Of a DNA stretch of 64,000 nt, positions 1,234 through 31,242 are shown one piece after another. Both the position numbers and the translations under genes were made by a program. The stretch comes from Candidatus Nomurabacteria bacterium. GTDB lineage: Bacteria; Patescibacteriota; Saccharimonadia; JAGOAT01. The stretch covers positions 310,767 through 374,766 of the forward strand of contig JACKGM010000001.1 of assembly GCA_020639315.1 (NCBI GenBank), read 5' to 3'. Under the pieces are notes generated by a model. It searched no databases and was not told the origin of the DNA. It saw only the letters and a list, made by a program, of their open reading frames with translations. The stretch's first letter is position 1; each line of letters begins with the position of its first letter.

Positions 1234-2014
1234 ACAAAGTCAAACTCAACAATCTAGTAGCCAACAGCTCAAAAGCACCCAGAGTCATTTGCCATTTTCT
1301 GAGATTAAGGACAATCTAGTGATTATGAAAGACGGCTCGATGCGTTCAATCATTCTTGCTTCACCTGTCAACTTTGACTTGATGAGTCCACAAGAGCGAG
1401 ATAGTGTCGAGTACGCTTATCAAGGATTTTTGAATGGACTCCACTTTCCAGTCCAGATTATAATTCGCTCTAGACATGTGGATCTGGATGGTTATCTAGA
1501 AAAACTTGAGCAAATCAAAAGCCAACATTACAATCTATTGCTAGCGGACTTGATGGGGGAATACATCTATAATATTCGTTTGTTGCTCGAACAAGTCAAT
1601 ATTATGCGTAAGGAGTTTTATGTAATTGTCCCTTATTATATCGACGGAGTTGCTAAAGCTAGGGACAATGTATTGACCAAGATTAGTTCAATCTTCAAGC
1701 CAAATCAGCAAGTCAGTCAAACTAGTCAAGAATATCAAGAGCATCGAAGGGATTTGGTTCAAAGAACCAATATGGTTAGTCAAAATCTAGCCCAGATGGG
1801 GATTAGAACTGCTACTCTGAATACCCGTGAAATTATCGAACTATTCTATAGCTCCTATAACCCCGATGAGGCAAGAAGTCAAGAACTAACCGCACCAGAA
1901 GAATTGACCGGGGATTATGTAGCCCGCAAGAGCAACCTTGAGAAGCCAGCAAGTCAACCTCTGGTCAGGGAGCCAGATGACTTATTTGAAGCAGCGAGGT
2001 CAAAAAATGGCTAA
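1226..2014 (+). CDS. Hypothetical T4SS-cluster protein; its N-terminal half resembles the N-domain of Gram-positive VirB4/TrsE-like ATPases
   Basis: The start overlaps the upstream stop as ATGGCTAA. The segment LPFSEIKDNLVIMKDGSMRSIILASPVNFDLMSPQERDSVEYAYQGFLNGL fits the VirB4 N-domain pattern. No ATPase motifs are present. Confidence 0.5.
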   Translation: MAKQSQTQQSSSQQLKSTQSHLPFSEIKDNLVIMKDGSMRSIILASPVNFDLMSPQERDSVEYAYQGFLNGLHFPVQIIIRSRHVDLDGYLEKLEQIKSQHYNLLLADLMGEYIYNIRLLLEQVNIMRKEFYVIVPYYIDGVAKARDNVLTKISSIFKPNQQVSQTSQEYQEHRRDLVQRTNMVSQNLAQMGIRTATLNTREIIELFYSSYNPDEARSQELTAPEELTGDYVARKSNLEKPASQPLVREPDDLFEAARSKNG

Positions 2015-3806
2015 GAATAAGACAGCCCAATCAAGACCCGATCAGAAAATGATCGATCGTAAGCTCGCGAGGCAGGCAAGGGCTAAACAGATCTACGAAA
2101 AAGGGATGCTCGGTATTAGGGATATCATTGCCCCTTCTTCATTTGAGATAGAGAGTAATCATATTCGTTTGGGTAAGGTGATGATTAGGACAATTTTTAT
2201 CTTTGGCTATCCACGGTCACTTTTTACAGGTTGGTTGTCCCCGATAATCAATCTAGATGAGATAGTTGACATTAGCCTCAATATTGTACCAGTCGAGACC
2301 AAGGTCGTTTTGACTAATCTCAAGAAAAAAGTTGCCCAGCTCGAGGCCAGCTATAATATTAATCGAGAGAAAGGTCGAGTCAGAGATCCTCAGCTCGAGG
2401 CTTCGATCCAGGATGCCGAAGAATTAAGAGACAGATTGCAGATCGGGGAAGAAAGATTTTACCGGTTTGGATTATATATCACAATCTATGGTAAAGATTT
2501 GGAGGAATTGGATTTTATCTCTAGAAGGATAGAAAGTATTTTGGCCAATAGTCTAGTCTATACCAAGCCAGCTACTATTCAAATGGAACAAGGGTTCAAC
2601 TCGACATTGCCAATCGGGAGTGATCAGATGGGGATTTATCGCAATATGAATACTGGCGCTTTATCGACTTGTTTCCCTTTTACAACTGCGGAGCTTAGTC
2701 ATAATGATGGGATACTCTATGGGATCAACCGTCACAACAATGGCCTAGTGTTATTCAATCGATTTGCCTTAGAAAACTACAATATGGTAGTATTTGCGAC
2801 TTCTGGTGCGGGTAAGAGTTTTGCCGTCAAGCTTGAGGCACTGAGACAGCTAATGATGGGAACAGAGATTATCGTAATTGATCCCGAGAACGAATATGCT
2901 GGACTTTGTGAAGCAGTCGGAGGAAGCTTTATCAAGGTCTCACTTGCTAGCGATAGTCAGATTAATCCATTTGATCTTCCTCAGGTGGTAGATAGCGAGG
3001 AGGCAGACAATGCTTTGAGAGCTAATATTATTATGCTGCATGGGATGCTCAGGCTGATGATGGGGGAAATGACCTCAAATGAGGAGGCTGACTTGGACTT
3101 AGCCCTCATCAACACTTATGCTCACAAGGGGATTACCAATGACCCATTGACTCATCAGAGTCAGCCACCAACAATCATTGATCTTTATAATGTACTCGCA
3201 TCGATGCAAGGCTCGACAGGCCCACAGCTAGCAGCTAAGCTCAGACGCTACGTCGAAGGAACATTTTCTGGGATATTTTCTCATCAGTCCAATGTCGATA
3301 TGAATAACAACTTTGTGGTATTTAATATTCGTGACCTTGAGGATGAACTGAGGCCAATCGCGATGTATATCATCCTTAACTTTATCTGGAACAAGGTCAA
3401 ATCTGAGTCCAAGCGAAGGATCTTGGTCGTGGATGAAGCTTGGATTATGATGCAGTATCAGGATTCAGCTCAATTTTTGTTTTCGGTAGCCAAAAGAGCT
3501 AGGAAGTACAACCTAGGCCTTACTACTATTTCTCAAGATGTTGAAGACTTCTTGAGTACCAGACTAGGTCGGGCAATCGTCAGTAACGCTTCTTTGCAAC
3601 TTTTGCTCAAGCAAAATCCAAGCTCGGTGGATATTATCGCTGATACTTTCAAGCTAACTAGTGAGGAAAAAAAACGCCTCAGCCAGTTTCCAGTCGGAGA
3701 AGGACTGTTTTTTGCTGGGCTAAGTCATATCGTAATCCAAATCCTAGCGTCGCCGACTGAGGAACAATTTATTACTACAGACCCGAATAAGGGGTGGAAG
3801 GGTTAG
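2007..3806 (+). CDS. virB4: VirB4/TrsE-like T4SS ATPase
   Basis: Walker A is FATSGAGKSFAV and Walker B is RILVVDEAW, with a VirB4-type N-domain (YPRSLFTGWLSPIINL). I prefer the ATG at 2007 (GAGG upstream, ATGGCTAA overlap with the upstream stop) over the ORF-track start at 1938. Confidence 0.85.
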   Translation: MAKNKTAQSRPDQKMIDRKLARQARAKQIYEKGMLGIRDIIAPSSFEIESNHIRLGKVMIRTIFIFGYPRSLFTGWLSPIINLDEIVDISLNIVPVETKVVLTNLKKKVAQLEASYNINREKGRVRDPQLEASIQDAEELRDRLQIGEERFYRFGLYITIYGKDLEELDFISRRIESILANSLVYTKPATIQMEQGFNSTLPIGSDQMGIYRNMNTGALSTCFPFTTAELSHNDGILYGINRHNNGLVLFNRFALENYNMVVFATSGAGKSFAVKLEALRQLMMGTEIIVIDPENEYAGLCEAVGGSFIKVSLASDSQINPFDLPQVVDSEEADNALRANIIMLHGMLRLMMGEMTSNEEADLDLALINTYAHKGITNDPLTHQSQPPTIIDLYNVLASMQGSTGPQLAAKLRRYVEGTFSGIFSHQSNVDMNNNFVVFNIRDLEDELRPIAMYIILNFIWNKVKSESKRRILVVDEAWIMMQYQDSAQFLFSVAKRARKYNLGLTTISQDVEDFLSTRLGRAIVSNASLQLLLKQNPSSVDIIADTFKLTSEEKKRLSQFPVGEGLFFAGLSHIVIQILASPTEEQFITTDPNKGWKG

Positions 3807-6800
3807 ATGTCAACACAAGATAATAAAAGTCAAGACACTGGTTTAGGATATTCTTATATCGAACCTTCATCTAGAGGTAAGGGGGGAGGGAATACAAAAG
3901 ACCAAAACCATTCTCCTTTTGAGCCTACACCTCTCCCTGAGCCTACGCCTCTCCCTGAAAATGAACCGATAGTGCCCATTGCGGGAAGGCAATCTAGTAG
4001 AAATAAAAAAAAAGAACAAACTAATATAGTTGAATCTGAAGATAGTCAAGAAGAAGACAAACCTCTTAGTCGAAAGATAGCTGATGGGGTATGGAAGCGC
4101 AAAAAAGGATTGGCATATGGGGGGCTTAGTGCACTAACGGTGCCGGGACTATTTACCTTAATGTTTACGCTTATGTTACCTTTTAAGTTACTTCACCTTA
4201 AAGAGAACTTTGAAGATTATGTTGGTCAAAAATTACAAGAAATTGTCCAGACTAGGATGGAAAGATTTGTAATTAAGCATGCGCTTTCGGGTTTTACAGG
4301 ACAAGGCTCAAGAAAAACAGGGCATCCTATCAGAGACTTAGTTTATAACTATCGTACAAATAAGATGGAAGCTACTCTTAAGAGTAGAGGGGTAGATATA
4401 GAACTCAATAGAGATGGCACTCTGAGTTCTATTATTGATAATACAGATCCTCATAACCCAATTCGTCATGATTATATTCCGGATGAAGGAGTTAAAGTTG
4501 GTCATGAGAGAAGTGCAGAAAAAAAATTTATTAATAATTTACTAGAAGAAACAAACCTTGATGTCAACATTGGTTCTAGTATAAGGAATGAAGAAAGGCT
4601 TCTTAAGAAGGTACACCATCGTCTGCGGTGGCAAAAAATATTTTTTCCTAAGACGCGTGCAAAGATCCATGCGGCTAAAGTTAATATAGCTGAAAATATT
4701 AAAAGTTTTATTAAAGGTAAGCCGATTTTAGATTTTTTACCAGATGTTTTAACGGAAAGCTCTGAGGGTGGTAAGAAAAACTTGTCGTCTAGGGTAGCTG
4801 ATCGGATAGCTGCTAAGAGTCCAATTTTACAAAAACTTGTAAAGGTAATCAGTGTTGGGGCTGTTGCCACAAAGGTTGTTGGATTTTTTTGTTCCCTAGT
4901 GAACGGAGTGCAGCATATTGTTGACGAAGTAGAAAGTAATCAGTTTGAAGCACTAGCCAACTCTGCAGCAGTACTTTTGACTGGAGCCGATCAAGTAATC
5001 GCAGGTGATGCTAGGTCTGAAGATGTAGGTGCACTAGTTAGTAGATATGTCGGGTCAAGTTTCGATACTAGTGTAGGTACAAAAACTATAATGACACGGG
5101 GAAAAGCAGAGGTTAGTGAGGATGAGCTTAATCCAGCAGCAAATCTAAAGTCAGAAACCGGAGTCAAACAAATACTAGATGGTTTCCTTACATTTATAGA
5201 TGCTGTAAAGCATCCAAAGGGTTTTTTCGCGAGCATTCCAGGGGTTGGATGGATTCTAGATCTTCCTGGTATCGGCGCATTTGCAGGTGCATTATTAGAT
5301 TTTAATGGTTTTATCATTAACCTGGTACTAGATCAGGGCTGTTCTATTTATAATAACAGTATTGGTAAAGGAGAAGAGTTTGTGTCAAATCAGCTGGAAA
5401 AGATTCCAGGTATTAAGCAGGCTTTGGGTTTTGTTAAATCGATAGGAGAAAAAGGGTTTGATATGGTTGTACATGCAGCAACAGGTGATATGTTTGATTT
5501 TGATAATGCTACAGACGAAGAAGCTAGTGATTACATGGGCAGTGCATTTCTTATAGGGGGAGATATTGGAACACAACAAAGTATTAAGGCAACTGGTGGA
5601 TATAAAATTGAGGGACAAGATTTGGAGCAATACAGTGATAGGGTAATAACTAGAATTTTAGATGAAGAGCGCCAAGCAAGTATTGCTGAAAGAATCTTTG
5701 CCATTGATAAACCATACTCTCTAACTGCTACTTTGTTATTTAGTTTACCAACAAGCTGGGGGCAAATGCTTGGAAGTTTACCTGGTATGACCAATGGCAT
5801 ATTCAAGCTGAGTTTTTATACTGGGTTTATTAATCAATTTAAATCTATTATCGTACCAGATTACAATCTTGCGTATGCTACCGCTTACGCCTATCCATTC
5901 AATGACATGGTACCACAGTATGGTATGAGAGTAGATGTTTTAGACTATATTAGCTCAGATGATATAGAAGAAGCATTTGGCTTAGTTGATCGTGTAGACC
6001 AGGCAGAGGCCAATCAGCAGAAGATAGATGCTATATATAGTAAGTATCATAGTTGTTTTAGCGAAGAGATAGACAAGCCGTTATTGAAATACTCAGAAGG
6101 GTGTCAAAAGTTAATAGATAATTCACCTACTATCTTTGATAAGGCAGTTATAGATGACGATGGGAACACTAAGCAAGTAAAGGCTACAGAGTTTGAGCTG
6201 GCTTCATTGTATTGTGTTGACTTGTCCTTGACTATATCTTCCCTCAGTATTAGTGCAGAATCAGACGCCCATGGAACGAAAGACCCATGTATCAGGGAAG
6301 ATATAGAGGAAGATAGGATAGTCAATACTATCTCTGCAGGTTCTGGATTGTTGGTTGAAGATGGTGGTTTGACTAGTACTGGCAATAAAGTAATTGATAA
6401 AAGTCTGGTAGACCCTGATGATATCGTGACAGTCTCAGGCGGGGGTAAGGTTAACGCTAGTATTGCAACCAATATAGAGAAATTACTAGCTGCTGCTAAG
6501 GATGATGGGATTAATTTTGTTGTGGGTGGATATAGGACTGCTGCAGCTCAGATTGAACTTAGAAAGGCCCATTGTGGTACAACTCAATATGATATTTACG
6601 AAAAGCCCTCTAAGCAATGTAATCCCCCTACTGCCCGCCCTGGTCAATCTAACCACGAAAAAGGGTTAGCTATTGACTTTGGCATTGTGGGGGGTCGTAC
6701 TTTGTGCTATGGAAAGACTACCTGTGGGCCGGGTGACCCCGAGAAAGAGGTTGAGGCATATAATTGGCTTGTCAATAATGCAGCAAAATACGGTTTATAT

Positions 6801-6845
6801 AAGCTTAAGGCTGAGGCTTGGCATTGGTCAGTGGATGGTAGGTAG
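3807..6845 (+). CDS. Large polytopic T4SS-associated protein with a C-terminal M15B/VanY-type peptidoglycan peptidase domain
   Basis: Several hydrophobic segments are present (LSALTVPGLFTLMFTLMLPF, VISVGAVATKVVGFFCSLV, GVGWILDLPGIGAFAGALLDF). The C-terminus has GQSNHEKGLAIDF and EAWHW, matching the SxHxxGxAxD and ExxH zinc-peptidase motifs. Confidence 0.65.
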   Translation: MSTQDNKSQDTGLGYSYIEPSSRGKGGGNTKDQNHSPFEPTPLPEPTPLPENEPIVPIAGRQSSRNKKKEQTNIVESEDSQEEDKPLSRKIADGVWKRKKGLAYGGLSALTVPGLFTLMFTLMLPFKLLHLKENFEDYVGQKLQEIVQTRMERFVIKHALSGFTGQGSRKTGHPIRDLVYNYRTNKMEATLKSRGVDIELNRDGTLSSIIDNTDPHNPIRHDYIPDEGVKVGHERSAEKKFINNLLEETNLDVNIGSSIRNEERLLKKVHHRLRWQKIFFPKTRAKIHAAKVNIAENIKSFIKGKPILDFLPDVLTESSEGGKKNLSSRVADRIAAKSPILQKLVKVISVGAVATKVVGFFCSLVNGVQHIVDEVESNQFEALANSAAVLLTGADQVIAGDARSEDVGALVSRYVGSSFDTSVGTKTIMTRGKAEVSEDELNPAANLKSETGVKQILDGFLTFIDAVKHPKGFFASIPGVGWILDLPGIGAFAGALLDFNGFIINLVLDQGCSIYNNSIGKGEEFVSNQLEKIPGIKQALGFVKSIGEKGFDMVVHAATGDMFDFDNATDEEASDYMGSAFLIGGDIGTQQSIKATGGYKIEGQDLEQYSDRVITRILDEERQASIAERIFAIDKPYSLTATLLFSLPTSWGQMLGSLPGMTNGIFKLSFYTGFINQFKSIIVPDYNLAYATAYAYPFNDMVPQYGMRVDVLDYISSDDIEEAFGLVDRVDQAEANQQKIDAIYSKYHSCFSEEIDKPLLKYSEGCQKLIDNSPTIFDKAVIDDDGNTKQVKATEFELASLYCVDLSLTISSLSISAESDAHGTKDPCIREDIEEDRIVNTISAGSGLLVEDGGLTSTGNKVIDKSLVDPDDIVTVSGGGKVNASIATNIEKLLAAAKDDGINFVVGGYRTAAAQIELRKAHCGTTQYDIYEKPSKQCNPPTARPGQSNHEKGLAIDFGIVGGRTLCYGKTTCGPGDPEKEVEAYNWLVNNAAKYGLYKLKAEAWHWSVDGR

Positions 6846-6847: not shown

Positions 6848-7801
6848 ATGCGTAGCAATAGATTGCTGATCACTACTATGATAATAGTAGGGTTGATTAG
6901 TATTGGTATTACAATTTTTAATAGGTCTGATAATGATCATAATGTAAGTTTAAGTCGGCATGTGGGAGATTTAAAAGTTGGTCTAGTTACTGATGGGGTG
7001 GATAGGCTTGTCGGAACTTACGAAGAATATATGGTTTACCAGACGTTAGATGTGGTAACCGTATATTCGTTATTCGGACAACAAATAATTAATCAAATAG
7101 ATGGTATAGCTGACTCTTGGTTATTAGGGGACGGTAGGGTTGTTGCAAATTTAATATCAGGTGGTTCTGTAATGATTAAAGAGGGTGTTGTTAGTAAAAG
7201 TGACCGAGAAGTTATCGTACTGTCAGGTACTATGTTTTACCGGGTATACGCAGATTTGGATAATGAAGATTATGGCTATCTTGTAAATCTATATTTTGAA
7301 GATGGCAGACTATTTCTTGACGGTATTCTTACAGATGAACATGGAAAACCCCAGTTATTACTTACTAAATTTAAAAATGGATATATTTATACAACTGATA
7401 ATGTCCAGGCAGATTATTTTTACTGGCATATTCTGGATAGTGAATTTAGGGAAGTTGATGATATTGAGGCAGACTTTGTTAGGGACCAAAAGTTGATTAA
7501 GGGGGTTGGTTTATTGGTTGATATTGGTAATGTTTATTATAAACTGGATCAAGATTATAATCTGGTAAGATTTGATTGGCCCAATAAAGACCTAGACTTT
7601 GAGAGTTTCTTTGAGAATCTATACCTAGACACCAGTAAAGACAACTCTGGTATTTATAACTTTTCAAGTGATAATCCGGTTACTACTAGAATGGAGCTAA
7701 CTTTAGCATCAGGACTAGTATTATCCGATATTACAGATGTAAAAGAATATCAAGAAGGGTATTTATATTTGGCAAAAGGAGCAGTATGGTACACAAGATA
7801 G
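6848..7801 (+). CDS. Hypothetical membrane-anchored protein (single N-terminal TM helix)
   Basis: 317-aa ORF tightly packed in the operon, with the N-terminal helix LLITTMIIVGLISIGITIF. Confidence 0.5.
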   Translation: MRSNRLLITTMIIVGLISIGITIFNRSDNDHNVSLSRHVGDLKVGLVTDGVDRLVGTYEEYMVYQTLDVVTVYSLFGQQIINQIDGIADSWLLGDGRVVANLISGGSVMIKEGVVSKSDREVIVLSGTMFYRVYADLDNEDYGYLVNLYFEDGRLFLDGILTDEHGKPQLLLTKFKNGYIYTTDNVQADYFYWHILDSEFREVDDIEADFVRDQKLIKGVGLLVDIGNVYYKLDQDYNLVRFDWPNKDLDFESFFENLYLDTSKDNSGIYNFSSDNPVTTRMELTLASGLVLSDITDVKEYQEGYLYLAKGAVWYTR

Positions 7802-8706
7802 TGATTTCAATCTTGGTTCTAGTAAACATCTTTATCTATTTTTTTGCAAAAAACTATATTCAACCGGTTAAAGCTGATGTCGAGTTGTGTGGGGAAGCGG
7901 GTAGAGTTAATCGAATCAACCTTGGTATCGAGTATTATGATTGCGAGGATGAATTGCCAGAAATACCACAAAAGGTAGAGAATACAGTTACTTTTGTCGA
8001 GGGCATTCCGCAGCTTTATGATAAAGAAAATAATCTTATCGAATTTGATCAGGACGGGTATCCCTTAGGTGTGGTTGATTATACAAATGTTGCAGACCCA
8101 CAAGCTTTCACTGAGGATGGTAAACCTGTGGTAATTTATGGTATTGACGCATTATATATTGTAACAGGAGGAGGCATTGTGGAGGACGGTATACCAGCAA
8201 AGTTAAGCGATGTGGTTGTCGTAGGTGCTAACGCTTGTACTACTCCCCTAATGCCAAATATTATTGAGACACAAAAGTTAGCTGATGTCATTAATGAATA
8301 CATCAAGTCAAAAAATCCAGGATCGCCATTTGTCGGTTTTGGGTCAGATTTTGTTCAGGCAGGAATGGATTATCAGGTTAACCCGTTGTTAATTGTAGCC
8401 CACGCATTTATTGAAACAAATTTTGGTCAAGCAGGGTCTGGTATTTCTAATGGTAGCCATAATGCTTTTGGTAGGACTGCTGGAGAAGGGCAACCATCGG
8501 CAGGTGGTTTTTATAAGTACGATAGTTTCCAGGAGAGCCTATATCAACAGGCTTATTATATGAAGAAAAAGTATATTGATATAGGGTTATCAAGTTTAGA
8601 ATTATATCTAAAGGAATATGCAGAAGGATGGCGAGAATATATACCTAAGGCTACAAAAGTAATGAATGAAGTAGCTAAAAATGCGGAGATGACTTGTGAC
8701 GATTAA
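7786..8706 (+). CDS. Membrane-anchored protein with a GH73-like (glucosaminidase) peptidoglycan hydrolase domain
   Basis: It has an N-terminal TM helix. The C-terminal pattern NPLLIVAHAFIETNFGQ...HNAFGR...YKYDSFQESL resembles the GH73 catalytic-Glu region. Confidence 0.45.
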   Translation: MVHKIVISILVLVNIFIYFFAKNYIQPVKADVELCGEAGRVNRINLGIEYYDCEDELPEIPQKVENTVTFVEGIPQLYDKENNLIEFDQDGYPLGVVDYTNVADPQAFTEDGKPVVIYGIDALYIVTGGGIVEDGIPAKLSDVVVVGANACTTPLMPNIIETQKLADVINEYIKSKNPGSPFVGFGSDFVQAGMDYQVNPLLIVAHAFIETNFGQAGSGISNGSHNAFGRTAGEGQPSAGGFYKYDSFQESLYQQAYYMKKKYIDIGLSSLELYLKEYAEGWREYIPKATKVMNEVAKNAEMTCDD

Positions 8707-9946
8707 TAAACACAGTGCAATAATTATGGCTGGAGTAATTTCTTTAGTCACAATAACTCTTGTTGGTTATTGGATAGGTCAACCCAAAGGAATTTTAGAT
8801 ATCCAATCACTTGATTTAGGTGATGGGGTTTTAGGTTTGGTTAATTCAGATAGTCAGATTGAATGGCAATTTTATGATGAGTCTCGATTAATAGGGTTTA
8901 ATGGTAGAAGTTTTTTTATTTATAATTTCAATGATAAGACTTTTGATAAATTAGTAGTAGACCAATTTTTGCCAAAGATTAATAACTACTCACTCTCTCC
9001 TGATAAACAGTTTATAATATTTGAATCTAGTGGAGACCTACTTGGTAGCTTAATGTATAATATCTTGGATCAAAAATTTTTAAATAAGGCTGTGAATTAC
9101 CTCTGGACTCTAAATATTCAGACCGGTGAGTATCAGTTGATTGGAGACAATCGAGTAATCGACTGGGTCTGGTCTGATAACCATACAATCTACTACACCC
9201 TGGATCAAGGTAGCTCTATGAATATTATTTATAATCTAGATTTAGAGAGGGGTACCAGGGAAGAGCTAACAAGGGTGGCAAGAGTTCAAAGTTTGGGTAA
9301 GTTGAATAATAAACTTGTTATATATAGACTGTCAGTTGAGGGTCAGGCTGTTACCAGCTTGATAGAAGGTGGCCAAGAGACAATCCTATTTAAGGATAAA
9401 TACGTAGAATTCTCAAAGTATCCCAGTAGGTACTATCTCGAAGAAAAAAATAACAAGCAGTATCACTTGAATAGTTTGGGTCAGGATAAAGGGGTTCTAG
9501 ATACAGGTATTGTTATTGATAATCAGAATTTTTCATTTGTGGGCTTAGACTTGATTAGCTATGATCAAAAATCAAATAAACTTTTAGTATATCAGTTAGC
9601 GAATCATATCTTAGTCGAATACCCCCTGCAGGATAAAATATCAGACCCAGACAGTATATTTGTATTTGATGGTAGTGTACTTATATACACTGAGGATGAT
9701 AATTTATGGCATACAAACCTCGATTTACCAGTTGATAAATTTGAGCCCAAAGAGAGTATTGATAGACAGGGTTACCTGATAGAGTACTATCAAGACAAAC
9801 CAGATTTACAGTTTCTAACCAAAGATATTAGCGAAGTAATGGACGATTTTGATAACTTTTTATCTGATCAAGGAGTGAACCCACTACTTGTACCGATTAC
9901 TGGTTTGCTATCAGATAGTATTTATTACGATCAGTCAATTCTGTAA
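8696..9946 (+). CDS. Hypothetical membrane-anchored protein, possibly beta-propeller-like
   Basis: 416-aa ORF with a GTG start (alternative ATG at 8726). It has an N-terminal TM helix and a repetitive beta-rich sequence. Confidence 0.45.
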   Translation: MTINKHSAIIMAGVISLVTITLVGYWIGQPKGILDIQSLDLGDGVLGLVNSDSQIEWQFYDESRLIGFNGRSFFIYNFNDKTFDKLVVDQFLPKINNYSLSPDKQFIIFESSGDLLGSLMYNILDQKFLNKAVNYLWTLNIQTGEYQLIGDNRVIDWVWSDNHTIYYTLDQGSSMNIIYNLDLERGTREELTRVARVQSLGKLNNKLVIYRLSVEGQAVTSLIEGGQETILFKDKYVEFSKYPSRYYLEEKNNKQYHLNSLGQDKGVLDTGIVIDNQNFSFVGLDLISYDQKSNKLLVYQLANHILVEYPLQDKISDPDSIFVFDGSVLIYTEDDNLWHTNLDLPVDKFEPKESIDRQGYLIEYYQDKPDLQFLTKDISEVMDDFDNFLSDQGVNPLLVPITGLLSDSIYYDQSIL

Positions 9947-10300: not shown

Positions 10301-10328
10301 TTGGTTAAGAGGTGATATCAGGTATAAT
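10301..10328 (+). promoter_or_regulatory. Putative promoter TTGGTT-N16-TATAAT for the giant gene
   Basis: Hexamers at 10301-10306 and 10323-10328. The in-frame ATG at 10339 lies 10 nt after the -10 box. Confidence 0.35.
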
Positions 10329-10338
10329 GATAAGCAGT

Positions 10339-13300
10339 ATGGAGGGAGTTAAAAAGTTTTTTAGTCTGGATAGGCTATTTGATAAATGGCATCTTGTTTT
10401 GCTAGTAAGCTTTAGCTTGGTGATTGCTTATTTTCTGGTAAGGTTTTTGGACAATCAAAATCCGGTAGTCTTGCAGGTTGGGAATCAGGAGCTGAGGGTG
10501 GAAGACCTTCGTCAAAAGTTAGAGCTAGGACTAGATTACGGTAATCAGCCAGAGGACACTGCAAATGCGATAATAGATATGGAGGCGATTAGGCAAGTCA
10601 ATGCTGGGCTTGGGATAATCCCAACAGAATCAGATATAGAACAATACCTTGGCAATTATACGGACAAGGCACTAGCAGAGAATATCGTACTTCAAAAAAA
10701 TCTTTACAAGTATGCTACCGAGAGTAGAATGCTCAAGCAATACTATGGAGAATATCAGGGTCAGGTCTTTATTTTCCCCTTTGATACCATGGATGGTAGT
10801 CTTGATCAAGAGCGGAAGGATTATGCCTACACAAAAGCTCAAGAGTATTTTACAGAGATTCAGACTGGGGAGAATCCAAATCAAGTACTAGCTGCAATAA
10901 AGGCAGATACCAGACTTCAGCCTGGCTCAGATTCGGATAATTCTAGTGCTAGCTTAGATATCGATTCTAGTGAAAACCTCGAAGATATTTATGGGATTAA
11001 CTACCCAGAGATATTAGATGAACTTTGGAGACTAGATAGTCCAGGTTTAAAAGATATTGTAATGATTAGCCAAGTTGATTCGGAATCTGGTGAGGAATAT
11101 TATAGTCAATATTTTTATTTTATTAATATTACAAATTTTAAAGCTCCGAGACTTGATATACAATCAGAGTATCAGCAGGCAATTGACAAGCTGTTAACTG
11201 AAAGCTATAATTTTGAACCGGATAAAATTAAGCAAATTGGATTTAGTGGTCTTAATAACATTGCTGGTAGACTAAAAGGGTCATTAATACCCAATGTTTA
11301 TGCAAGTGCCGCCAAGAATCATCAGGCAGGTCCTAGTATATTCAAGCAAATTACTAAATATAAGACTAAAAGATCTAAGATTCTCAAAACTTTTGGGGAT
11401 ATTAGTGGCCGAGTCCTGGATCCTGACGGTTATGCGGCACCGGGCTCAATAGTTAGACTCAAATATAAGAATGTCGAGAATCCAAACTGCTTGAAGTGTG
11501 ATAGCGCATTTGTAGATATTGGCAAAGCAGGCAGTACTAAAGGTAAAGGATTAGGTGATGAGTCTGCACCCAGGGTAGATTATCGTAAAGTAAATGCTGG
11601 GGTTCTCTATAACACCACTGAGATGCAAGGATATCATGATTATGTCGAATTAATTACCGATAGTAATGGATATTATTCCCTTAGCTCGATTGATTTATTG
11701 ATTGATTGCAATCGTCATATCACAGAGCATGGAGGGGGTATAGCAGTAGAGATTGCGGTTGAAGTAGTAAATCAATATAAGGACGAACTTACTCTTAACC
11801 AGCCAGTTCAAACGATGCAGGTAGGGGGATCTAGCAAATTGAGATTTACCCAAACAAACCAAAAAAAGTCTAATTTAGCATCAAAGCTCCTTAAGGGTTT
11901 AGAATTTAAATTGGGCAAGAGAGTAGAGGCTGCTGATAATAATCAGGTATTAGTATTTGGTGACTCGATTGCCAATGGCATAAGTAGTGTACTGGATGAA
12001 TATTTACCCGAAGGTTGGTCTATGACTGAAGACTCTGATGATTTACTCTCAAAAGATGGTAGGCATGCGTACAATACATCTGATAACCCTAGCCTTAGCG
12101 GGCTTGCTAATGCTGAGACTGTGGTAGCTAGTGACGCTGGCGAACAGGCAGATGTGGTAGTCATATCCTTAGGGGCGAATGATGTTCCAGCAGATGCTAG
12201 TGATCTGTCAGGTAGTAATGGTTATGCTAATGCCATGCAAGACATTATCAGCTTGTTTATCGACAAACAGATTATACTTGTGGGTTTGTATTATGAAGGT
12301 AGTAATTATAATAATACAGTCAATGCTTATTTAGAGGGCATAGCAGAGGCTAATGAAGGTATTAGCTATATTGATTGGGATAGTATGGTTAGCGAGGATA
12401 GTAGCCTAGGTCAAGGTAGGGATCCTCACCCCAGTCCTGCTGGTTATAAGCAGATTGCTCAAGCGATCGGAGATTATCTTAATAATACTACACCGACTGA
12501 AGCTGGCGCCGAAGAGATAGAAGCGATTGAAGTCTCTGGAGTCTCGGCGGAAGCTTTAAATGATATTCCCGAAACAATGCTTTGGAGATACAAAAAGTAT
12601 TCTGAAGAGTACTGTCCCGGTTTGGATTGGACTGTGATTGCTGGAATGTATAAAAAAGAAAGCAATCATGGACGTTACCCAAATAATACCGTGGCCGCTG
12701 ATGGCACAGTATCGAATCCTATCATTGGAGATGTTTTAACTAGGTCTGGGGAAAGGGCTATTGGGCCTGGACAGTTCTTGCCTTCTACTTGGTCTAGTGT
12801 TGGGTTTGATGCAGACGGGGATGGTGAAGTTAATGCCCAGGATGCGGATGACGCAATAGCCAGTAGTGTAAGATACATTTGCCCAGGTGTGGGTAAAAAC
12901 GATAATTACAAATCTGCAGTTGCGATTTATAATGGCTCAAGTTCTTATTATACAGGTGTCATGAACTGGTCTAGCAGATATAAGGGTACTTTAAGTGAGT
13001 CGTTATCAATCACATCAGCTGCAGATGCAGGTGGTTCTTCTGTCAATGAAGGGACTAGTTCTGCAGATGTTAAGTCTAATAATGATCATGTGGTCAAAGC
13101 ACCAGCAATAGCGACCCGCACAAGAACGACTCCAAGGGAAACACCCTCGGGCACTTCTTTTAATTCACGTAATTCAATCAATCCTGATCTAGGTGGTAAG
13201 CCTGAGGATAAGCCAGACCCAGACCCAAATCCTCCTGAGACTCCTGATATCGAGGGTAAACTTCCACCCCTCGAACGCCCCGTCATCTCGATCAAAAAAT

Positions 13301-16300
13301 ACGTCGGTCACAGCACTGATGATCTCAGTGATGCCCAAGACTCAGCTACAGCTGTCAAGTTCTATCCTGGTCAATCGATAGTCTATCAAGTAGTAATTAC
13401 TCATCAGTCTGGAGCAGATGCGACCAAAGTAGTCTGGTCTGACGAAAACCTTGATGGATTTGTCTCAGGTGGACTGATGGAACTAGGAGATTGGACTAGT
13501 GATACTCAAGTAGATGACATCTTCTCATTCCCTCTCAAACAAGGAGAAGAGATCACCTTCTTAAGAGAAGGCACAATCTCCCTAGATGCTGGTCTCTTCG
13601 GTCTAGACCAAGAATCAGTTCTTAACTCAACTGCTGCCCTTGAAAACATCGCCAGTGTCGATGAACTCAATGATGCTGATCCTGGGATTGCTAGTGGTGA
13701 TCCTGCTAATATCTTGCCGACGATAGCCGAAGTCAAGCTCGATAAGCTAGTCAGCAATATTAGTGACAATATCTTGGATCAGCCAGCCGATGACTTAGAA
13801 CATACTGTCTTTTTCGGTCCTGGAGAAGAAATCGAATACAAAATGGTCATCACCAACGAGGGTCCAGACGGAGCAGTCGGTCTGATTTGGGCTGATGATA
13901 GTCTGCCGACTTTTGCTACCTTTGAAGGCTGGAAGCTTGAGGATGGCTCAGATGCTCCCGAGATGCTATTTGACCCTTCAGTATCAGAAGATACACTAGA
14001 GTCAGGAGAATCAATTACCCTGATCAACCGTGGTCGGATCAATCCTGATGCTGGAGACTTCGGAGTCGGTACTAGCCTAGACCCCCGGGGTGGCTATGAG
14101 AATATAGCCTCAGTCGATCCTCTGACCCACGATAGCAACCTAGAAAACAATACCAACCCAGCCTGGATCTCCCCCAAGCTAGTCGACCTCACCATCAAAA
14201 AACAAGTCTCCAACCTCACCGAAACCCCATTCCTCTCCCCAGGCACAAGTCCCTACTACCTCAGTGATGGTCCTATCTACTATGATGCAGATAGTATAGA
14301 CAATGCAGTCTCCTTCGGTCCTAGTGAAGAGATAGAGTACCGTATAGAGATAATAAACAACGGTCCAGACGAAGCCACCTCTATCAGCTTCACTGATCCT
14401 GATCTCCCAGATGAGCTAGTAGACTGGGAGTCAGACGGCTGGATCAACGCTGAGACTGGTGAAACCGTATCCTCAGGAGATACCATCTTCCCAATCCCAG
14501 CCGAAGGAGCTCCGACTGAATTCCTCTGGCCTGAAGAGTCCAAGACGATTGATCCTGAGACCAAAGCAGAAACCACAGTCAACAATATCACTGAAGGTAA
14601 GAGAGTCAGAATAGTCCTAACCAAGAAAGGTAGAATCAAGAACGACCTAGCTAATACCGATTGGTTCCAGTCTAATACTGCTCACCAAAACACTGCAGAA
14701 GTCTCTACTATCAATCCAGAAACCAACTATGACAACAATACCAACGATGCCTACATCGACCCCAAGGTCACAGACATCATCATCGGTAAAGTCGGTCAGA
14801 CTGGTAATGACACTGGTCTAGCAGGTAAAGAACTAACTTGGACGATTAGAGTAGTCAACAATGGTAAAGACTCAGCTATCTCTCTCGTAGACAATGGAGG
14901 AATCAAGCTAACCGACTACCTCAACCTCAAAGACACCTACAATGAAACAGTTACCTATCAATGTGTCCCTGCCTATGCCTGCAGTGTCCCAACCGGAGAA
15001 ATCAACTCCACTGACAATCCCGAAGGTATCCTAGACCTAGAACTCTACCTCGGCCCTGGCTTTGGAGACATGGAGCAAGTAGACTTCATCGATATCCTCT
15101 CAGATGAGGAGCTGTCAGCCAACCAAACCGACACTACCAACAACAACACCACCACCAACAACAACACTAACACCACTAACACCAATAACACCAACACCAC
15201 CACCAACACTAACACTACCAACAACACTACCAACAACACTGACACCACCCAAACCACCAATACTGATCTAACCACCCTCCCCGTCTGTGAGACTGGTAGA
15301 TTCATCGGTATTAACAAGGCTACTGACACTACTACAGGCTTCAACCCCGATATCAACGAGGATGGCAATGGAGACCTCTATGTTCTCTTCAATACCAATT
15401 GCTTTAGCTCCTACCCTGACCTCAGCCACTTCGAGCTAACAGACCTCTCCCTTAGCAGTGATGAAGTAGTCAACTACCTCACCCAGTATCAAGGTGGTAA
15501 AATTGCTTACTATCAAACCCCTACTCACCTAAACACCACCAATCAAGTAGACATCCAAATCACCGCTAGACTAGCTGACCATGTCACCTATGGTGATGAT
15601 GTCACTACTCAAGCAGTAGATGAGATCTGTAATCCTAGTGACAAGAACAACCCTGATCAAAAAGTCCATGTCGAAAAGACCGAAACCGTAGCCTGGGAAT
15701 TGTCACTAGACAATAACACCGCTCCCCTAAGATGTATCCCAGTAATGCTCTGTTACAACGAAGATGGTCAAGCCTTAGCTAGCTATCCCGGTAAAGAAGG
15801 AGAAGACTTCTATCTCTCATTCGTCGGAGTAGACAATGAAGGTAACAAACTCTATGATCAATCTCTAGATGAACTAATCGCTAGAGATGACTTAGCAGGA
15901 CTAGATGTGATCTGTCGTAAGCCTACTACCTGTGAGCTTAAAGTAACGCGGACGATAGTACTAGCCAATGGTACAGAAGAAACCACTGATGTCGAAGTCA
16001 CCGAACTATTTGATGGCTCAGCTGCTGGTGCTGATACCACTGACCTCGGATACTACAACTTTAGCCTAGAGTGTCAAAACCTCGAAGACGGACAATCCCC
16101 CAACCTCACGATTGAAGTCATCCGCCGTCTCTTCGGTCCCTACTTCGCGATCGAAGATGGTTCAGCCACAGTGCTCGGAGAAATAGTCAAAGGTGTCTAT
16201 CCTGAAGACAATGACCTAGACATCACTCGTCATACCCACATCCTGACCGCTACCAATGAAATCTCTTCAATCTTCTGCTCACTAACCGAGATCATGGCAG

Positions 16301-17109
16301 CCGGAGAGAGTGTAGACTGTACTAGTCCTAGTGACCTAGCTGGAGCCGGATACCCAATCCGTCTAGACGGAGGTAGCAAGGACAACTTTGTCAATGTACT
16401 TGACTCAATAGAGAGTCTAATCGCAGAACCAGACTCCTCCCCCTATGAAGTAGTTACTATTAACAACCTAAACCAAATCCCCCTTGACCTCAGTGATGGT
16501 AAGAGCCCAGACTTCGAACCTGATCCCAACTCCACCACTACCCCAGTCCCTTACCCCACCCTCTATGTCTATGATGGAGATCTAGAGATCTCAGCTAGTC
16601 AAGCTATGCACTACAATGCAGGTCTAGCTACTATCTACGTCAGGGGTAATGTCTACATCAATGGAGACATCATCAGAGATGACAATACAGTGATAGAAGA
16701 CATAGATGAGTATCCCAACCTAGGTATTATCTCTACTGGCAATATCTACATCAGACCAGACACCTCCAAATCAGTAGAGACTCCCCAAGTAATTGACGCC
16801 AGTCTCTTCGCCCAAGGTATGATCGAAACAGCCTACCGTCAAACCACTCAAACCCCAATCCCCGAATACTATACCAACCAACCCCTAATCTTCCATGGTA
16901 CAGTAGCCTCCAAGGGAGATGAGAGTGTCCCAGGAGTCAAAGACCCAATCACCAATCAAGTCTATGCCTTCAAACTAAACAGGACCAATGTCTCAGTCAC
17001 CCTAGGACAAGACTGTAACAATACTCAAGTCTCTGAATGCTTTGCACCAGACAACTCAATCTTTATTGCTACTCCTCCGGGGTTTGAGGATCGGCTTAGC
17101 TCGGAGTGA
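10339..17109 (+). CDS. Giant surface protein (about 2250 aa): N-terminal TM anchor, SGNH/GDSL hydrolase, lytic transglycosylase, four DUF11-type repeats, an Asn/Thr tract and a large C-terminal region
   Basis: One uninterrupted ORF; the ORF track starts it at GTG 10312. SGNH blocks are VLVFGDSIANG, ISLGANDV and DPHPSPAGY (about 11940-12480). Transglycosylase motifs are YKKESNHG, IGPGQFLPSTW, DADGDGEVNAQDADDAI and AIYNGSS (about 12580-12960). Repeats end in ENIASVD or NTAEV...DNNTND. Confidence 0.8.
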   Translation: MEGVKKFFSLDRLFDKWHLVLLVSFSLVIAYFLVRFLDNQNPVVLQVGNQELRVEDLRQKLELGLDYGNQPEDTANAIIDMEAIRQVNAGLGIIPTESDIEQYLGNYTDKALAENIVLQKNLYKYATESRMLKQYYGEYQGQVFIFPFDTMDGSLDQERKDYAYTKAQEYFTEIQTGENPNQVLAAIKADTRLQPGSDSDNSSASLDIDSSENLEDIYGINYPEILDELWRLDSPGLKDIVMISQVDSESGEEYYSQYFYFINITNFKAPRLDIQSEYQQAIDKLLTESYNFEPDKIKQIGFSGLNNIAGRLKGSLIPNVYASAAKNHQAGPSIFKQITKYKTKRSKILKTFGDISGRVLDPDGYAAPGSIVRLKYKNVENPNCLKCDSAFVDIGKAGSTKGKGLGDESAPRVDYRKVNAGVLYNTTEMQGYHDYVELITDSNGYYSLSSIDLLIDCNRHITEHGGGIAVEIAVEVVNQYKDELTLNQPVQTMQVGGSSKLRFTQTNQKKSNLASKLLKGLEFKLGKRVEAADNNQVLVFGDSIANGISSVLDEYLPEGWSMTEDSDDLLSKDGRHAYNTSDNPSLSGLANAETVVASDAGEQADVVVISLGANDVPADASDLSGSNGYANAMQDIISLFIDKQIILVGLYYEGSNYNNTVNAYLEGIAEANEGISYIDWDSMVSEDSSLGQGRDPHPSPAGYKQIAQAIGDYLNNTTPTEAGAEEIEAIEVSGVSAEALNDIPETMLWRYKKYSEEYCPGLDWTVIAGMYKKESNHGRYPNNTVAADGTVSNPIIGDVLTRSGERAIGPGQFLPSTWSSVGFDADGDGEVNAQDADDAIASSVRYICPGVGKNDNYKSAVAIYNGSSSYYTGVMNWSSRYKGTLSESLSITSAADAGGSSVNEGTSSADVKSNNDHVVKAPAIATRTRTTPRETPSGTSFNSRNSINPDLGGKPEDKPDPDPNPPETPDIEGKLPPLERPVISIKKYVGHSTDDLSDAQDSATAVKFYPGQSIVYQVVITHQSGADATKVVWSDENLDGFVSGGLMELGDWTSDTQVDDIFSFPLKQGEEITFLREGTISLDAGLFGLDQESVLNSTAALENIASVDELNDADPGIASGDPANILPTIAEVKLDKLVSNISDNILDQPADDLEHTVFFGPGEEIEYKMVITNEGPDGAVGLIWADDSLPTFATFEGWKLEDGSDAPEMLFDPSVSEDTLESGESITLINRGRINPDAGDFGVGTSLDPRGGYENIASVDPLTHDSNLENNTNPAWISPKLVDLTIKKQVSNLTETPFLSPGTSPYYLSDGPIYYDADSIDNAVSFGPSEEIEYRIEIINNGPDEATSISFTDPDLPDELVDWESDGWINAETGETVSSGDTIFPIPAEGAPTEFLWPEESKTIDPETKAETTVNNITEGKRVRIVLTKKGRIKNDLANTDWFQSNTAHQNTAEVSTINPETNYDNNTNDAYIDPKVTDIIIGKVGQTGNDTGLAGKELTWTIRVVNNGKDSAISLVDNGGIKLTDYLNLKDTYNETVTYQCVPAYACSVPTGEINSTDNPEGILDLELYLGPGFGDMEQVDFIDILSDEELSANQTDTTNNNTTTNNNTNTTNTNNTNTTTNTNTTNNTTNNTDTTQTTNTDLTTLPVCETGRFIGINKATDTTTGFNPDINEDGNGDLYVLFNTNCFSSYPDLSHFELTDLSLSSDEVVNYLTQYQGGKIAYYQTPTHLNTTNQVDIQITARLADHVTYGDDVTTQAVDEICNPSDKNNPDQKVHVEKTETVAWELSLDNNTAPLRCIPVMLCYNEDGQALASYPGKEGEDFYLSFVGVDNEGNKLYDQSLDELIARDDLAGLDVICRKPTTCELKVTRTIVLANGTEETTDVEVTELFDGSAAGADTTDLGYYNFSLECQNLEDGQSPNLTIEVIRRLFGPYFAIEDGSATVLGEIVKGVYPEDNDLDITRHTHILTATNEISSIFCSLTEIMAAGESVDCTSPSDLAGAGYPIRLDGGSKDNFVNVLDSIESLIAEPDSSPYEVVTINNLNQIPLDLSDGKSPDFEPDPNSTTTPVPYPTLYVYDGDLEISASQAMHYNAGLATIYVRGNVYINGDIIRDDNTVIEDIDEYPNLGIISTGNIYIRPDTSKSVETPQVIDASLFAQGMIETAYRQTTQTPIPEYYTNQPLIFHGTVASKGDESVPGVKDPITNQVYAFKLNRTNVSVTLGQDCNNTQVSECFAPDNSIFIATPPGFEDRLSSE
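15121..15270 (+). repeat. Low-complexity ACC/AAC/ACT codon tract encoding an Asn/Thr-only linker inside the giant CDS
   Basis: It translates to TDTTNNNTTTNNNTNTTNTNNTNTTTNTNTTNNTTNNTDTTQTTNTD. Confidence 0.9.
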
Positions 17110-17385: not shown

Positions 17386-18426
17386 ATGAAAAATATAGAT
17401 AGCGTCAAGGAATATTTTGGACTGGACATCGGTAACAGTAGTATTAAGCTTGTCCAATTAAAGGCCGGACACCCCAAGCCCGAGCTGGTGACCATTGGTA
17501 GTGCTCAGACCCCAGATGGATTGATTGGTAGAGATACTCCGGAGTCAAAGAGGGAGGTAGCTAAGTTAATTGTAAAATTAGTCAAAGATAGTCAGGTCAC
17601 TTCTAATAATGTGATAGCCTCACTCCCCAATTCGATAGTTTCAGCCAATATTGTCAGGGCGCCCAAGCTCAAAAAACAAGAATTAGATCAGTCTATTAAG
17701 TTTCAGGCTGAGAAATATATTCCAATTCCAATTGACCAAGCCAAGATTGATTGGGCTCATTTGGGGGAGACCCCAGACGGTAAAGAAGTAGAAGTGCTTT
17801 TGGTAGCTGCTCCTTTGGAAAAAGCTAATAAATATCTAGATATTTTGCAGTTAGCCGGGCTTGAGCTGTTGGCTCTGGAGATTAACCCATTAGCCCATAT
17901 TAGATGCTTTAGTAGTGTTAAGAATAGTAGATATTGCATAGTCGATCTTGGCATGAGTGAGACTGGGATTACGATTGTTGATAACCATATACCGAAGCTT
18001 ATTAGATCAGTCAATATTGGTATTCGTAATTTGATCTCTAATCTTGCAGAAAATCTTAATCTTCCACCGGATCAGGCCAATAACTACCTTTGGCGGTTAG
18101 GCATCGGACAGAGCCAGATGCAGAGCCAGATCTTTTCCAGTGTTCAGCAACTTAGCGATACTATAATCCAAGAGATTAGCCGCTCGATTAACTTTTATAA
18201 TAATCAAGTCGGAGCTGAGGCGGTCAAAAAATTAATCTTTACTGGTGGGGGTATTAGTGTACCCGGACTAGTTAGCTACTATAGTGGCAGTCTAAAAATA
18301 CCTACCGAATATGGTAATCCATGGCAACATATTAGCTATAGTCCATCACGAAAACAATATATCGATAAGACTATCCCAACCTTTGCTACAGCAGTTGGTC
18401 TAGCGATGAGGAATCTAATCGAATGA
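17386..18426 (+). CDS. pilM: Type IV pilus assembly protein PilM (actin-like ATPase fold)
   Basis: It has FGLDIGNSSIKLVQLK near the N-terminus, is 346 aa long and is followed by pilN and pilO. Confidence 0.8.
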   Translation: MKNIDSVKEYFGLDIGNSSIKLVQLKAGHPKPELVTIGSAQTPDGLIGRDTPESKREVAKLIVKLVKDSQVTSNNVIASLPNSIVSANIVRAPKLKKQELDQSIKFQAEKYIPIPIDQAKIDWAHLGETPDGKEVEVLLVAAPLEKANKYLDILQLAGLELLALEINPLAHIRCFSSVKNSRYCIVDLGMSETGITIVDNHIPKLIRSVNIGIRNLISNLAENLNLPPDQANNYLWRLGIGQSQMQSQIFSSVQQLSDTIIQEISRSINFYNNQVGAEAVKKLIFTGGGISVPGLVSYYSGSLKIPTEYGNPWQHISYSPSRKQYIDKTIPTFATAVGLAMRNLIE

Positions 18427-22724: not shown

Positions 22725-22725
22725 T

Positions 22726-23946: not shown

Positions 23947-23949
23947 CTA

Positions 23950-23978: not shown

Positions 23979-24032
23979 ATAGACATAAGGGGTATCACTA
24001 ATAATTTAATAAAACAAAACTAAGGAGTAATA

Positions 24033-24494: not shown

Positions 24495-24503
24495 GCGGTT
24501 ACC

Positions 24504-31237: not shown

Positions 31238-31242
31238 AATAT

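Follow-up and report, generated by a model that had tools for sequence, protein, structure and literature searches.

A type IV secretion operon of a Patescibacterium encodes a putative envelope subunit with one conserved membrane helix and a VanY-type peptidase domain

The gene considered here lies at positions 3807-6845 (+) of a 64,000-nucleotide stretch, hereafter the window, of contig JACKGM010000001.1 from a Candidatus Nomurabacteria bacterium, and it encodes a protein of 1012 amino acids (aa) within a type IV secretion system (T4SS) operon. The T4SS of Saccharibacteria, which crosses two cell walls, is essential for parasitic, epibiotic growth; the gene family described below is one essential, uncharacterised part of that T4SS. 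In the window, the end of holA precedes the first gene of the operon, which encodes a PrgI/VirB3-like T4SS membrane protein with two transmembrane (TM) helices (487-1233, +; Pfam PrgI, E 2e-13). It is followed by a gene for a TrsD/TraC-like T4SS protein (1226-2014, +; NCBIfam TrsD, E 2e-6; PF26593 TraC-like in the precomputed calls) and by a VirB4 ATPase gene (1938-3806, +; Pfam P-loop_TraG, E 7e-28, and AAA_10). The longest virB4 open reading frame (ORF) opens with TTG at position 1938 and shares 77 nt with the TrsD-like gene. A likelier start is the ATG at 2007, which gives a 599-aa product, as in the related locus L001; the precomputed call for the window contig is 609 aa. The presence of PrgI, TrsD, and VirB4 upstream bears out the original prediction that the 1012-aa gene belongs to a T4SS operon.

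The ORF at 3807-6845 and its translation were found as first described. Its ATG directly abuts the virB4 stop codon (TAG/ATG) and is preceded by a purine-rich, Shine-Dalgarno-like GGGGTGGAAGGG stretch. We judged the gene to be real because a syntenic homologue, P0001 (970 aa), shares 48% identity with its product and because the identical 1012-aa protein is also encoded on two more metagenome contigs. Since the next three ORFs (starting at 6848, 7786, and 8696) abut or overlap, they form one operon with the gene. They encode a 317-aa membrane-anchored protein with an N-terminal TM helix and a 41%-identical syntenic orthologue (6848-7801, +), a 306-aa membrane-anchored glycosidase of the glucosaminidase family (7786-8706, +; N-terminal TM helix; Pfam Glucosaminidase, E 6e-10; PHROG endolysin, E 6.5e-8), and a 416-aa membrane-anchored protein, likewise with an N-terminal TM helix, whose overlapping start makes it the last overlapping gene of the operon (8696-9946, +). 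Neither the 317-aa nor the 416-aa protein matched any family in Pfam, NCBIfam, or PHROGs. The glucosaminidase is the likely partner enzyme of the VanY-bearing 1012-aa protein.

The sole Pfam domain of the 1012-aa protein is VanY (PF02557), located at aa 881-1007 (6447-6827, +). The match has an E-value of 3.3e-12 and scores 46.8 bits, above the curated cut-off of 25 bits, and it spans profile positions 3-127 of 132, so that the VanY assignment made by eye in the original prediction is confirmed by a profile search. The two motifs quoted for it are in place: SNHEKGLAIDF, the Zn-binding motif with S948, H950, and D957, occupies aa 948-958 (6648-6680, +), and EAWHW, the catalytic/Zn motif with E1003 and H1006, occupies aa 1003-1007 (6813-6827, +). 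Across the four VanY-type modules of the family (alignment A3), S948, H950, G953, A955, D957, E1003, and H1006 are invariant. SNHEKGLAIDF is in register with SEHQLGLAVD of VanY-B, EAWH (E1003-H1006) is in register with EPWH of VanY-B and YodJ, and a GYR(T/S)xxxQ stretch also aligns with both enzymes; in one module, that of P0007, the Arg of the GYRT motif is replaced. The catalytic H/D/H triad is therefore kept in an alignment of the four modules with VanY-B and YodJ.

When the A3 profile was compared with the PDB, it matched VanY-B (5hnm, 5zhf, 6a6a; E about 1e-14), Bacillus subtilis LdcB/YodJ (4ox3; E 3e-12), other LdcB/DacB entries (E 3e-11 to 5e-9), and, more weakly, the endolysin endopeptidases LysB4 and Ply500 (E 1e-6 to 4e-6). 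The whole-family profile weakly matched VanY and Hedgehog N-domains in the PDB, 6n7g included (E about 2e-3). With the full AlphaFold2 model, the top PDB match of Foldseek was the enzymatically active domain of Ply500 (2vo9), with a probability of 1.0 but an E-value of 0.1 and a TMt of 0.49; the predicted local distance difference test score (pLDDT) of the C-terminal region was only 52-84. Sequence comparison thus gives good support to the assignment of the C-terminal ~130 aa to the M15B/VanY family, with Zn-binding and catalytic residues intact. The bond that would be cut cannot be read from the sequence: the nearest characterised relatives are DD-/LD-carboxypeptidases, yet L-Ala-D-Glu endopeptidases share the fold.

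At the other end of the protein, aa 1-101 (3807-4109, +) form a tail rich in S, K, P, and E, which is disordered (pLDDT about 30) and predicted to be cytoplasmic. Within this tail, the peptide EPTPLP occurs twice in EPTPLPEPTPLPE (aa 39-51), which is encoded by an 18-bp tandem repeat at 3920-3958 (+; Tandem Repeats Finder score 71; 2.2 copies, 95% match), in agreement with the Pro-rich direct repeat reported earlier. The repeat is not conserved in the closest homologue, P0001, with which the tail shares 18-22% identity, and it has the look of a duplication that arose recently by slippage within a disordered tail. Another short tandem repeat (4152-4182; period 12, 2.7 copies, 81% match) lies within the coding region of the first TM helix (TM1), where it matches the peptide FTLMFTLML, and is probably trivial.

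The protein had been described as polytopic. A Kyte-Doolittle (KD) scan revealed one strong helix at aa ~102-127 (KD peak 1.73) and two weak segments at aa ~345-368 and ~473-509, each with charged residues. Topology was compared in a 26-sequence alignment of the window protein and 25 relatives (A1). The helix at reference position ~115 was strongly hydrophobic in 24 of 24 full-length relatives (KD 1.6-2.85), and the family-mean hydropathy was 1.9 at TM1 and no more than 0.96 at both weak segments. These segments rose above threshold at position ~356 in nine members and at ~486-555 in about 17, with both doing so in only four; three members have TM1 alone. The polytopic description was accordingly abandoned: one TM helix, followed by the juxtamembrane motif LPFKLxH(I/L) (4110-4199, +; consensus LLPFKLxHI), is conserved across the 26 members, and the two weak segments are inconsistent. 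We argue that the latter belong to a soluble domain, as helices that are buried or amphipathic, because if they were true TM helices, the members with just one of them would have a cytoplasmic wall peptidase. A bitopic topology with the N-terminus inside and the C-terminus outside is most likely, given that a KRKK cluster stands just before TM1, that an acidic flank follows it, and that all ten Cys residues lie after TM1, with several Cys columns conserved in the family.

Between TM1 and the peptidase, aa 128-813 (4188-6245, +) constitute a mainly alpha-helical domain of about 690 aa that is predicted to be extracytoplasmic and contains six Cys residues, at least three of them at family-conserved positions. 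AlphaFold2 models of the full-length protein and of aa 128-830, built with 26 sequences, had mean pLDDT values of 59.9 and 61.7, respectively, and showed this region as mostly helical. A Foldseek search of the region against the PDB and BFVD returned nothing significant; matches to tape-measure, SMC, and exportin proteins (probability 0.18 or below) were rejected as generic long-helix similarity. The region had no match in Pfam, NCBIfam, or PHROGs, the family profile had no match to PDB sequences outside the peptidase, and a tblastn search of the N-region against plasmids and phages yielded no match. The long stretch without a recognised motif that was noted in the original prediction thus persists in profile searches, as the residues outside VanY match no Pfam, NCBIfam, or PHROG family. 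A low-confidence and probably flexible linker (aa 814-880; 6246-6446, +; pLDDT below 50 for aa 814-827 and 830-886) joins this domain to the peptidase.

In word-indexed searches, whether the query was the full protein or the 26-member alignment, P0001 was the sole relative returned, and searches of GTDB genome contigs with the single protein and with a two-sequence alignment returned no relative. An exhaustive HMMER search with aa 90-865 as the query, which leaves out the tail and the peptidase, was run against 1.84 billion cluster representatives (E<=1e-3) and recovered only 25 relatives, 24 of which are 621-1055 aa long. By this search, the family is narrow and fast-diverging. One member is annotated as 'Candidatus Saccharimonadia bacterium', and so far the family has been found only in Saccharimonadia-like (Patescibacteria) loci; the supplements of a Patescibacteria T4SS survey hold neither the assemblies of the homologues nor PF02557.

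Genomic context was examined for six relatives and for the contig of the window itself (L002). Six of these loci retain their upstream flank (L001, L002, L005, L006, L007, and L009), and each of the six has the order PrgI, TraC-like/TrsD, VirB4, and the family member. On this synteny, the idea of a housekeeping carboxypeptidase unlinked to T4SS genes was rejected, and the T4SS linkage suggested for the window gene holds in these loci. A wall-hydrolase gene (Phage_lysozyme2, Glucosaminidase, or Peptidase_C39_2) follows the member in L002, L003, L006, L007, and L009; L001 and L005 end before such a gene could be seen. The Phage_lysozyme2 gene comes directly next in L003, L006, and L007, and the glucosaminidase gene stands one gene further in the window. 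L007 and L009 run downstream to recF-dnaN-dnaA. In L006, the gene after the member (10905-13385) encodes Phage_lysozyme2 fused to a Beta-lactamase2 (penicillin-binding-like) domain, and in L009 the gene after the member carries Peptidase_C39_2. Given these differing domains, the partner hydrolase appears to be as modular as the peptidase.

The C-terminal hydrolase itself is interchangeable on one conserved N-region. Four members, namely the window protein, P0001, P0007, and P0018, end in a VanY-type module (SxHxxGxAxD...ExxH). About 12 carry a second LAS-type signature (HxxGxAxD...HxH) in C-termini that had no Pfam match even at E up to 1, and one, P0022, carries NlpC/P60. The module is absent in about eight members, one of which, P0003, has a genuine stop and an overlapping next gene. 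The window module alone had 83 short stand-alone relatives (98-260 aa; 39-56% identity), with a recorded VanY domain in 81 of the 83 and PG_binding_1 in some; taxon labels were available for only six of them, and five of these six named organisms are Actinomycetota. The gene of one stand-alone relative is flanked by gyrA and a gene for a DUF3566 protein. Neighbour-joining placed the modules of the window protein and P0001 within the stand-alone enzymes and those of P0007 and P0018 at a distance; since the tree carries no support values, it is only a lead. What it suggests is more than one gain or replacement of peptidase modules.

The products of the operon differ widely in their rate of change. 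Between the window and L001, amino-acid identity is 97.5% for VirB4, 92% for TrsD, and 87% for PrgI, and it is 48% for the 1012-aa protein, 41% for the 317-aa protein, and 63% for the glucosaminidase. The nonsynonymous divergence (dN) of virB4 is 0.021 (window 1938-3806 against L001 8201-10000), and the genes just downstream are 41-63% identical, so that conservation falls off steeply at precisely the virB4 stop codon; in dN, the envelope-exposed products of the operon diverge about 20 times as fast as VirB4. Saturation of synonymous sites in every gene of this comparison keeps dN/dS from being computed, and the holA fragment, too, has an identity of only 62% in the same two genomes. For these two reasons, the contrast of 97.5% with 48% is not evidence of positive or diversifying selection or of recent replacement; it comes from a cytoplasmic core under extreme constraint and exposed parts whose constraint is ordinary to weak. 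Within the 1012-aa protein, the parts best conserved in comparison with P0001 are the TM/juxtamembrane segment, aa 701-815, and the VanY domain (56-66%; 58-66% for the VanY module itself), and the worst conserved are the N-tail and aa 471-560 (18-30%).

Given these features, we propose, with a probability of roughly 0.7, that the 1012-aa protein is a Patescibacteria-specific envelope subunit of the T4SS with a tethered, interchangeable peptidoglycan peptidase, working like PrgK or TagX. The proposed architecture runs from a cytoplasmic, disordered tail of about 100 aa through an N-in TM helix with an LPFKLxH exit motif to a Cys-containing helical ectodomain of about 690 aa, a flexible linker, and a putatively Zn-dependent M15B (VanY/LdcB-like) peptidase. 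The ectodomain would be the conserved and probably structural part, standing beside the VirB3/TrsD/VirB4 core, and the tethered peptidase would cut or trim peptidoglycan stem peptides around the T4SS. It may act jointly with the membrane-anchored glucosaminidase, the product of the second gene downstream, the outcome being that the T4SS and its VirB2-like pilus could cross the wall. Such a role would parallel that of the two-domain VirB1 analogues (PrgK, TraG of pIP501, and CwlT) and that of TagX in type VI secretion (T6SS).

Several points weigh against this proposal. About one third of the family members have no peptidase module, and the peptidase therefore cannot be the core function of the family. 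By sequence, the closest solved relatives of the module are carboxypeptidases (VanY, LdcB), which trim stems and do not open the meshwork; a hole-making role would thus need either endopeptidase activity or the cooperation of a glycosidase. A topology with three spans, likewise with the C-terminus outside, stays conceivable for the window protein itself. The label 'unknown fold' for the ectodomain is provisional, because the models are of moderate quality (pLDDT about 60) and the alignment is shallow (26 sequences). No VirB6 or TrbL was detected by Pfam in the 64-kb window, in which nearly all ORFs of at least 100 aa were scanned, and this leaves some room for a channel role in this lineage. 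Moreover, it is gene order and published annotation, not sequence alignment, that make the window gene the positional counterpart of SEML1_0007 from Candidatus Southlakia epibionticum.

A channel role had been part of the original prediction, which called the remainder of the protein a possible channel component, and a polytopic channel subunit of the VirB6 type with a peptidase fused to it would fit its three hydrophobic segments as well as the lack of any other VirB6/TrbL match in the window. A large VirB6-like protein is encoded near virB4 in Tn916 and ICEBs1, which offers a precedent. This explanation is nevertheless extremely improbable and largely refuted already. TM1 alone is conserved in the family, so that the protein falls short of the five or more TM helices of a VirB6; it has no Pfam TrbL/VirB6 match of its own; and hhalign gave a probability of only 0.5% between the family profile and the TrbL_3 protein of L006 and no relation to the other large protein that belongs to the T4SS in related loci. 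L005 and L006 each contain a TrbL_3 (VirB6-like) gene distinct from the family member, which is thus not the sole VirB6 candidate of its locus, and S. epibionticum has a VirB6-like gene of its own, SEML1_0013. The TrbL_3 genes of L005 and L006 lie upstream of prgI; the site just upstream of prgI, which holds the VirB6-like gene in these two loci and in S. epibionticum, is occupied by holA in the window. The peptidase domain might instead be a non-catalytic or regulatory wall-binding module, with the neighbouring glycosidase doing the cutting. The LytM and CHAP domains of PrgK are reportedly modules of this kind, and the members that lack the module, together with the replaced Arg in the GYRT motif of P0007, point in the same direction. 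We regard this as very unlikely for the window protein, in which S948, H950, D957, E1003, and H1006 are all present, as they are invariantly in the four VanY-type members, and whose module belongs to the best-conserved parts between the window and P0001.

The question of whose wall would be cut bears on the remaining alternative, in which the ectodomain and linker present the peptidase to the host wall at the contact site between epibiont and host. The peptidase may then be released by processing, the host sacculus would be weakened for the T4SS or pilus, and the module would be matched to the host peptidoglycan chemotype. This host-directed role, already raised in the original prediction, seems unlikely to us, although some circumstantial evidence speaks for it. 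The family occurs in Saccharimonadia-type loci, and epibiotic growth requires the T4SS of this type, which is without coupling and relaxase proteins. From lineage to lineage the C-terminal module is swapped, and the window module is 50-56% identical to stand-alone M15B enzymes and nearer to them than to the VanY modules of P0007 and P0018. Five of the six named stand-alone relatives belong to Actinomycetota, the phylum from which the hosts for growing Saccharibacteria in culture are taken, and one lies in the chromosomal context gyrA-[M15]-DUF3566. In addition, the envelope-exposed products evolve about 20-fold faster in dN than VirB4, and TagX is active only as a processed fragment. However, no computed result separates self wall from host wall; the protein is membrane-anchored and has no predicted cleavage site; and the characterised T4SS and T6SS wall hydrolases of this kind all have the wall of their producer as the target. 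Rapid evolution and the swapping of modules are general among surface proteins and peptidoglycan hydrolases, with holA itself at only 62% identity, and the phylogenetic argument draws on taxon labels for six of 83 relatives and on the unsupported tree. A bolder form of the same idea takes the ectodomain and its swappable hydrolase as a device that breaches the host wall and determines host range rather than serving as a housekeeping assembly factor; its VanY module would have been captured from small M15B enzymes of Actinomycetota, and module type would track host peptidoglycan chemotype. We hold this version to be more doubtful still. An envelope subunit with a tethered peptidase that would trim stem peptides around the T4SS stays our preferred explanation.

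The rest of the window carries further surface and secretion genes. Three VirB2-like T4SS pilin genes lie at 30884-32078 (-), with all three ORFs matching Pfam T4SS_pilin PF18895 (E 2e-9 to 2e-11). This array is 24 kb from the virB4 operon, with a type IV pilus cluster and housekeeping genes in between; the T4SS genes are dispersed in the genome, and the VirB2-like pilins are part of the same secretion system. The gene set of the window fits the pattern described for Patescibacteria, and especially for Saccharimonadia, of a chromosomal MPF-FATA-like T4SS with PrgI, TrsD, VirB4, and VirB2-like pilin arrays, in which relaxase and coupling protein are absent nearby. Directly after the T4SS operon, a membrane-anchored protein of 2265 aa (10312-17109, +) combines a GDSL-lipase domain (aa 548-713), an SLT_2/MltB-like lytic transglycosylase segment (aa ~816-857), and DUF11 repeats; this lipase and wall-lytic surface protein could be a host-attack factor. 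At 14-18 kb, the GC content climbs to 0.45-0.47 and the GC skew becomes negative. A complete type IV pilus cluster follows at 17386-26550 (+), comprising pilM, two unannotated ORFs, pilB-like and pilT-like ATPase genes, pilC, and four pilin genes with the N-methyl motif, and after it come tRNA-Arg, tRNA-His, and argS. The remainder consists of housekeeping genes (argS, rpsT, dnaG, rpoD) and polysaccharide genes, among them two Wzm/Wzt-type ABC-2 polysaccharide exporter pairs (34023-36037 and 43833-45901, +), each with a Wzt C-terminal domain and both within a glycosyltransferase/sugar-nucleotide block of about 24 kb. A PemK/MazF-like toxin gene (62640-62966, +) lies near the window end.

The presence of a LAS/M15-type peptidase gene after virB4 in Patescibacterial T4SS operons, and its essentiality in the cultured model, have already been published. 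The present analysis therefore adds detail and an experimental entry point, not a new principle, and with SEML1_0007, the published virB4-adjacent peptidase, and TagX known, the gene is less unprecedented than was first implied. New here are the recognition that the family is most likely bitopic rather than polytopic, that its N-region is without detectable relatives by exhaustive search, that its C-terminal hydrolase is interchangeable, and that this genome offers a canonical, assayable VanY version of it. The family can now be approached through one membrane anchor, a large, fast-evolving outside domain of provisionally unknown fold, and an interchangeable wall-cutting module, for which the window provides a textbook-type and easily assayed VanY; the peptidase of the cultured model strain, by contrast, is invisible to Pfam.

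The closest known counterpart is SEML1_0007 of Candidatus Southlakia epibionticum ML1, a 1113-aa protein essential in transposon sequencing (Tn-seq) (Wang et al. 2023, PMC10633639). The one domain assigned to it, at aa 951-1105, is a Hedgehog/DD-peptidase fold in ECOD (template 6n7g, chain C), and the UniProt proteins that neighbour its full-length structure carry the annotations 'Peptidase M15B domain-containing' and 'Peptidase M23 domain-containing' (PMC10633639). The template 6n7g is also among the weak PDB matches of the whole-family profile. In that genome, dnaA, dnaN, and recF (SEML1_0001-0003) are followed by 0004, 0005, 0006, and 0007, then by VirB4 (0008), 0009, and PrgI (0010), with the VirB6-like gene at 0013; SEML1_0006 has two lysozyme-like domains and a cysteine proteinase (PMC10633639). 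SEML1_0007 has also been mentioned as a 'peptidase ... immediately downstream of virB4' that might take the place of VirB1 (Quinonero-Coronel et al. 2025, PMC12102498). The window protein and SEML1_0007 are alike in their length of about 1000-1100 aa, in their position right after virB4 in a PrgI-TrsD-VirB4 operon that continues with a lysozyme-family gene, in a C-terminal part of about 150 aa that is of the LAS (Hedgehog/DD-peptidase) type, by fold in SEML1_0007 and by sequence profile in the window protein, and in an unannotated N-terminal part of about 900 aa. The traits of the SEML1_0007 type, namely a virB4-adjacent position, a length of about 850-1100 aa with a C-terminal LAS domain, and a glycosidase gene downstream, are all found in the window, and the related loci L007 and L009 reproduce the SEML1_0007 neighbourhood down to recF-dnaN-dnaA. 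They differ in that the peptidase of SEML1_0007 is invisible to Pfam, whereas that of the window is a clear PF02557 VanY; in that the window operon stands next to holA, not dnaA, and has no VirB6-like genes upstream of prgI; and in the extra 317-aa gene before the glycosidase gene.

At the level of the catalytic domain, VanY-B and LdcB/YodJ (5hnm, 5zhf, 4ox3, 4ox5) are the same kind of enzyme, with motifs that align domain-wide (E 1e-14 to 3e-9). These are small housekeeping or resistance DD-/LD-carboxypeptidases with at most a membrane anchor, whereas the domain of the window protein is the C-terminal tenth of 1012 aa and has a Cys-containing insertion between the two motifs.

In operon position near virB4, membrane anchoring, and a wall-hydrolase domain predicted to lie outside, the window protein resembles the VirB1-like hydrolases PrgK (pCF10), TraG (pIP501), CwlT (ICEBs1), and TcpG (pCW3), but its domain content places it outside their family. 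Passage through the thick wall in Gram-positive T4SSs needs the pairing of a peptidase with a glycosidase. In the four proteins named, a glycosidase (SLT, lysozyme, or glucosaminidase) and a CHAP or NlpC/P60 peptidase share one polypeptide; in the window, the glycosidase is a separate gene (7786-8706), the peptidase is of the M15B type, and the 1012-aa protein has no SLT, CHAP, or NlpC/P60 Pfam match. The distinction from the SLT, CHAP, and NlpC modules of PrgK, TraG, and CwlT drawn in the original prediction therefore stands, and the ~690-aa domain is absent from all four proteins.

TagX of the Acinetobacter T6SS is a membrane-anchored L,D-endopeptidase of the VanY superfamily that is needed for the T6SS to get across the peptidoglycan of the producer (Weber et al. 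2016, PMC5061870); experiments have demonstrated that it works as an L-Ala-D-Glu endopeptidase, and it is active only as a processed fragment (PMC5061870). It differs from the window protein in serving a T6SS in a diderm, in being small, with two TM helices and no large ectodomain, and in its Pfam family, PF13539 (Peptidase_M15_4), to which the PF02557-bearing window protein had no match; the window domain is also nearest in sequence to carboxypeptidases. The two proteins share a membrane anchor, a C-terminal Zn peptidase of the LAS/VanY superfamily, a place in a secretion-system gene cluster, and a relation to Ply500, the Foldseek top match of the window protein, and we regard TagX as a functional analogue only.

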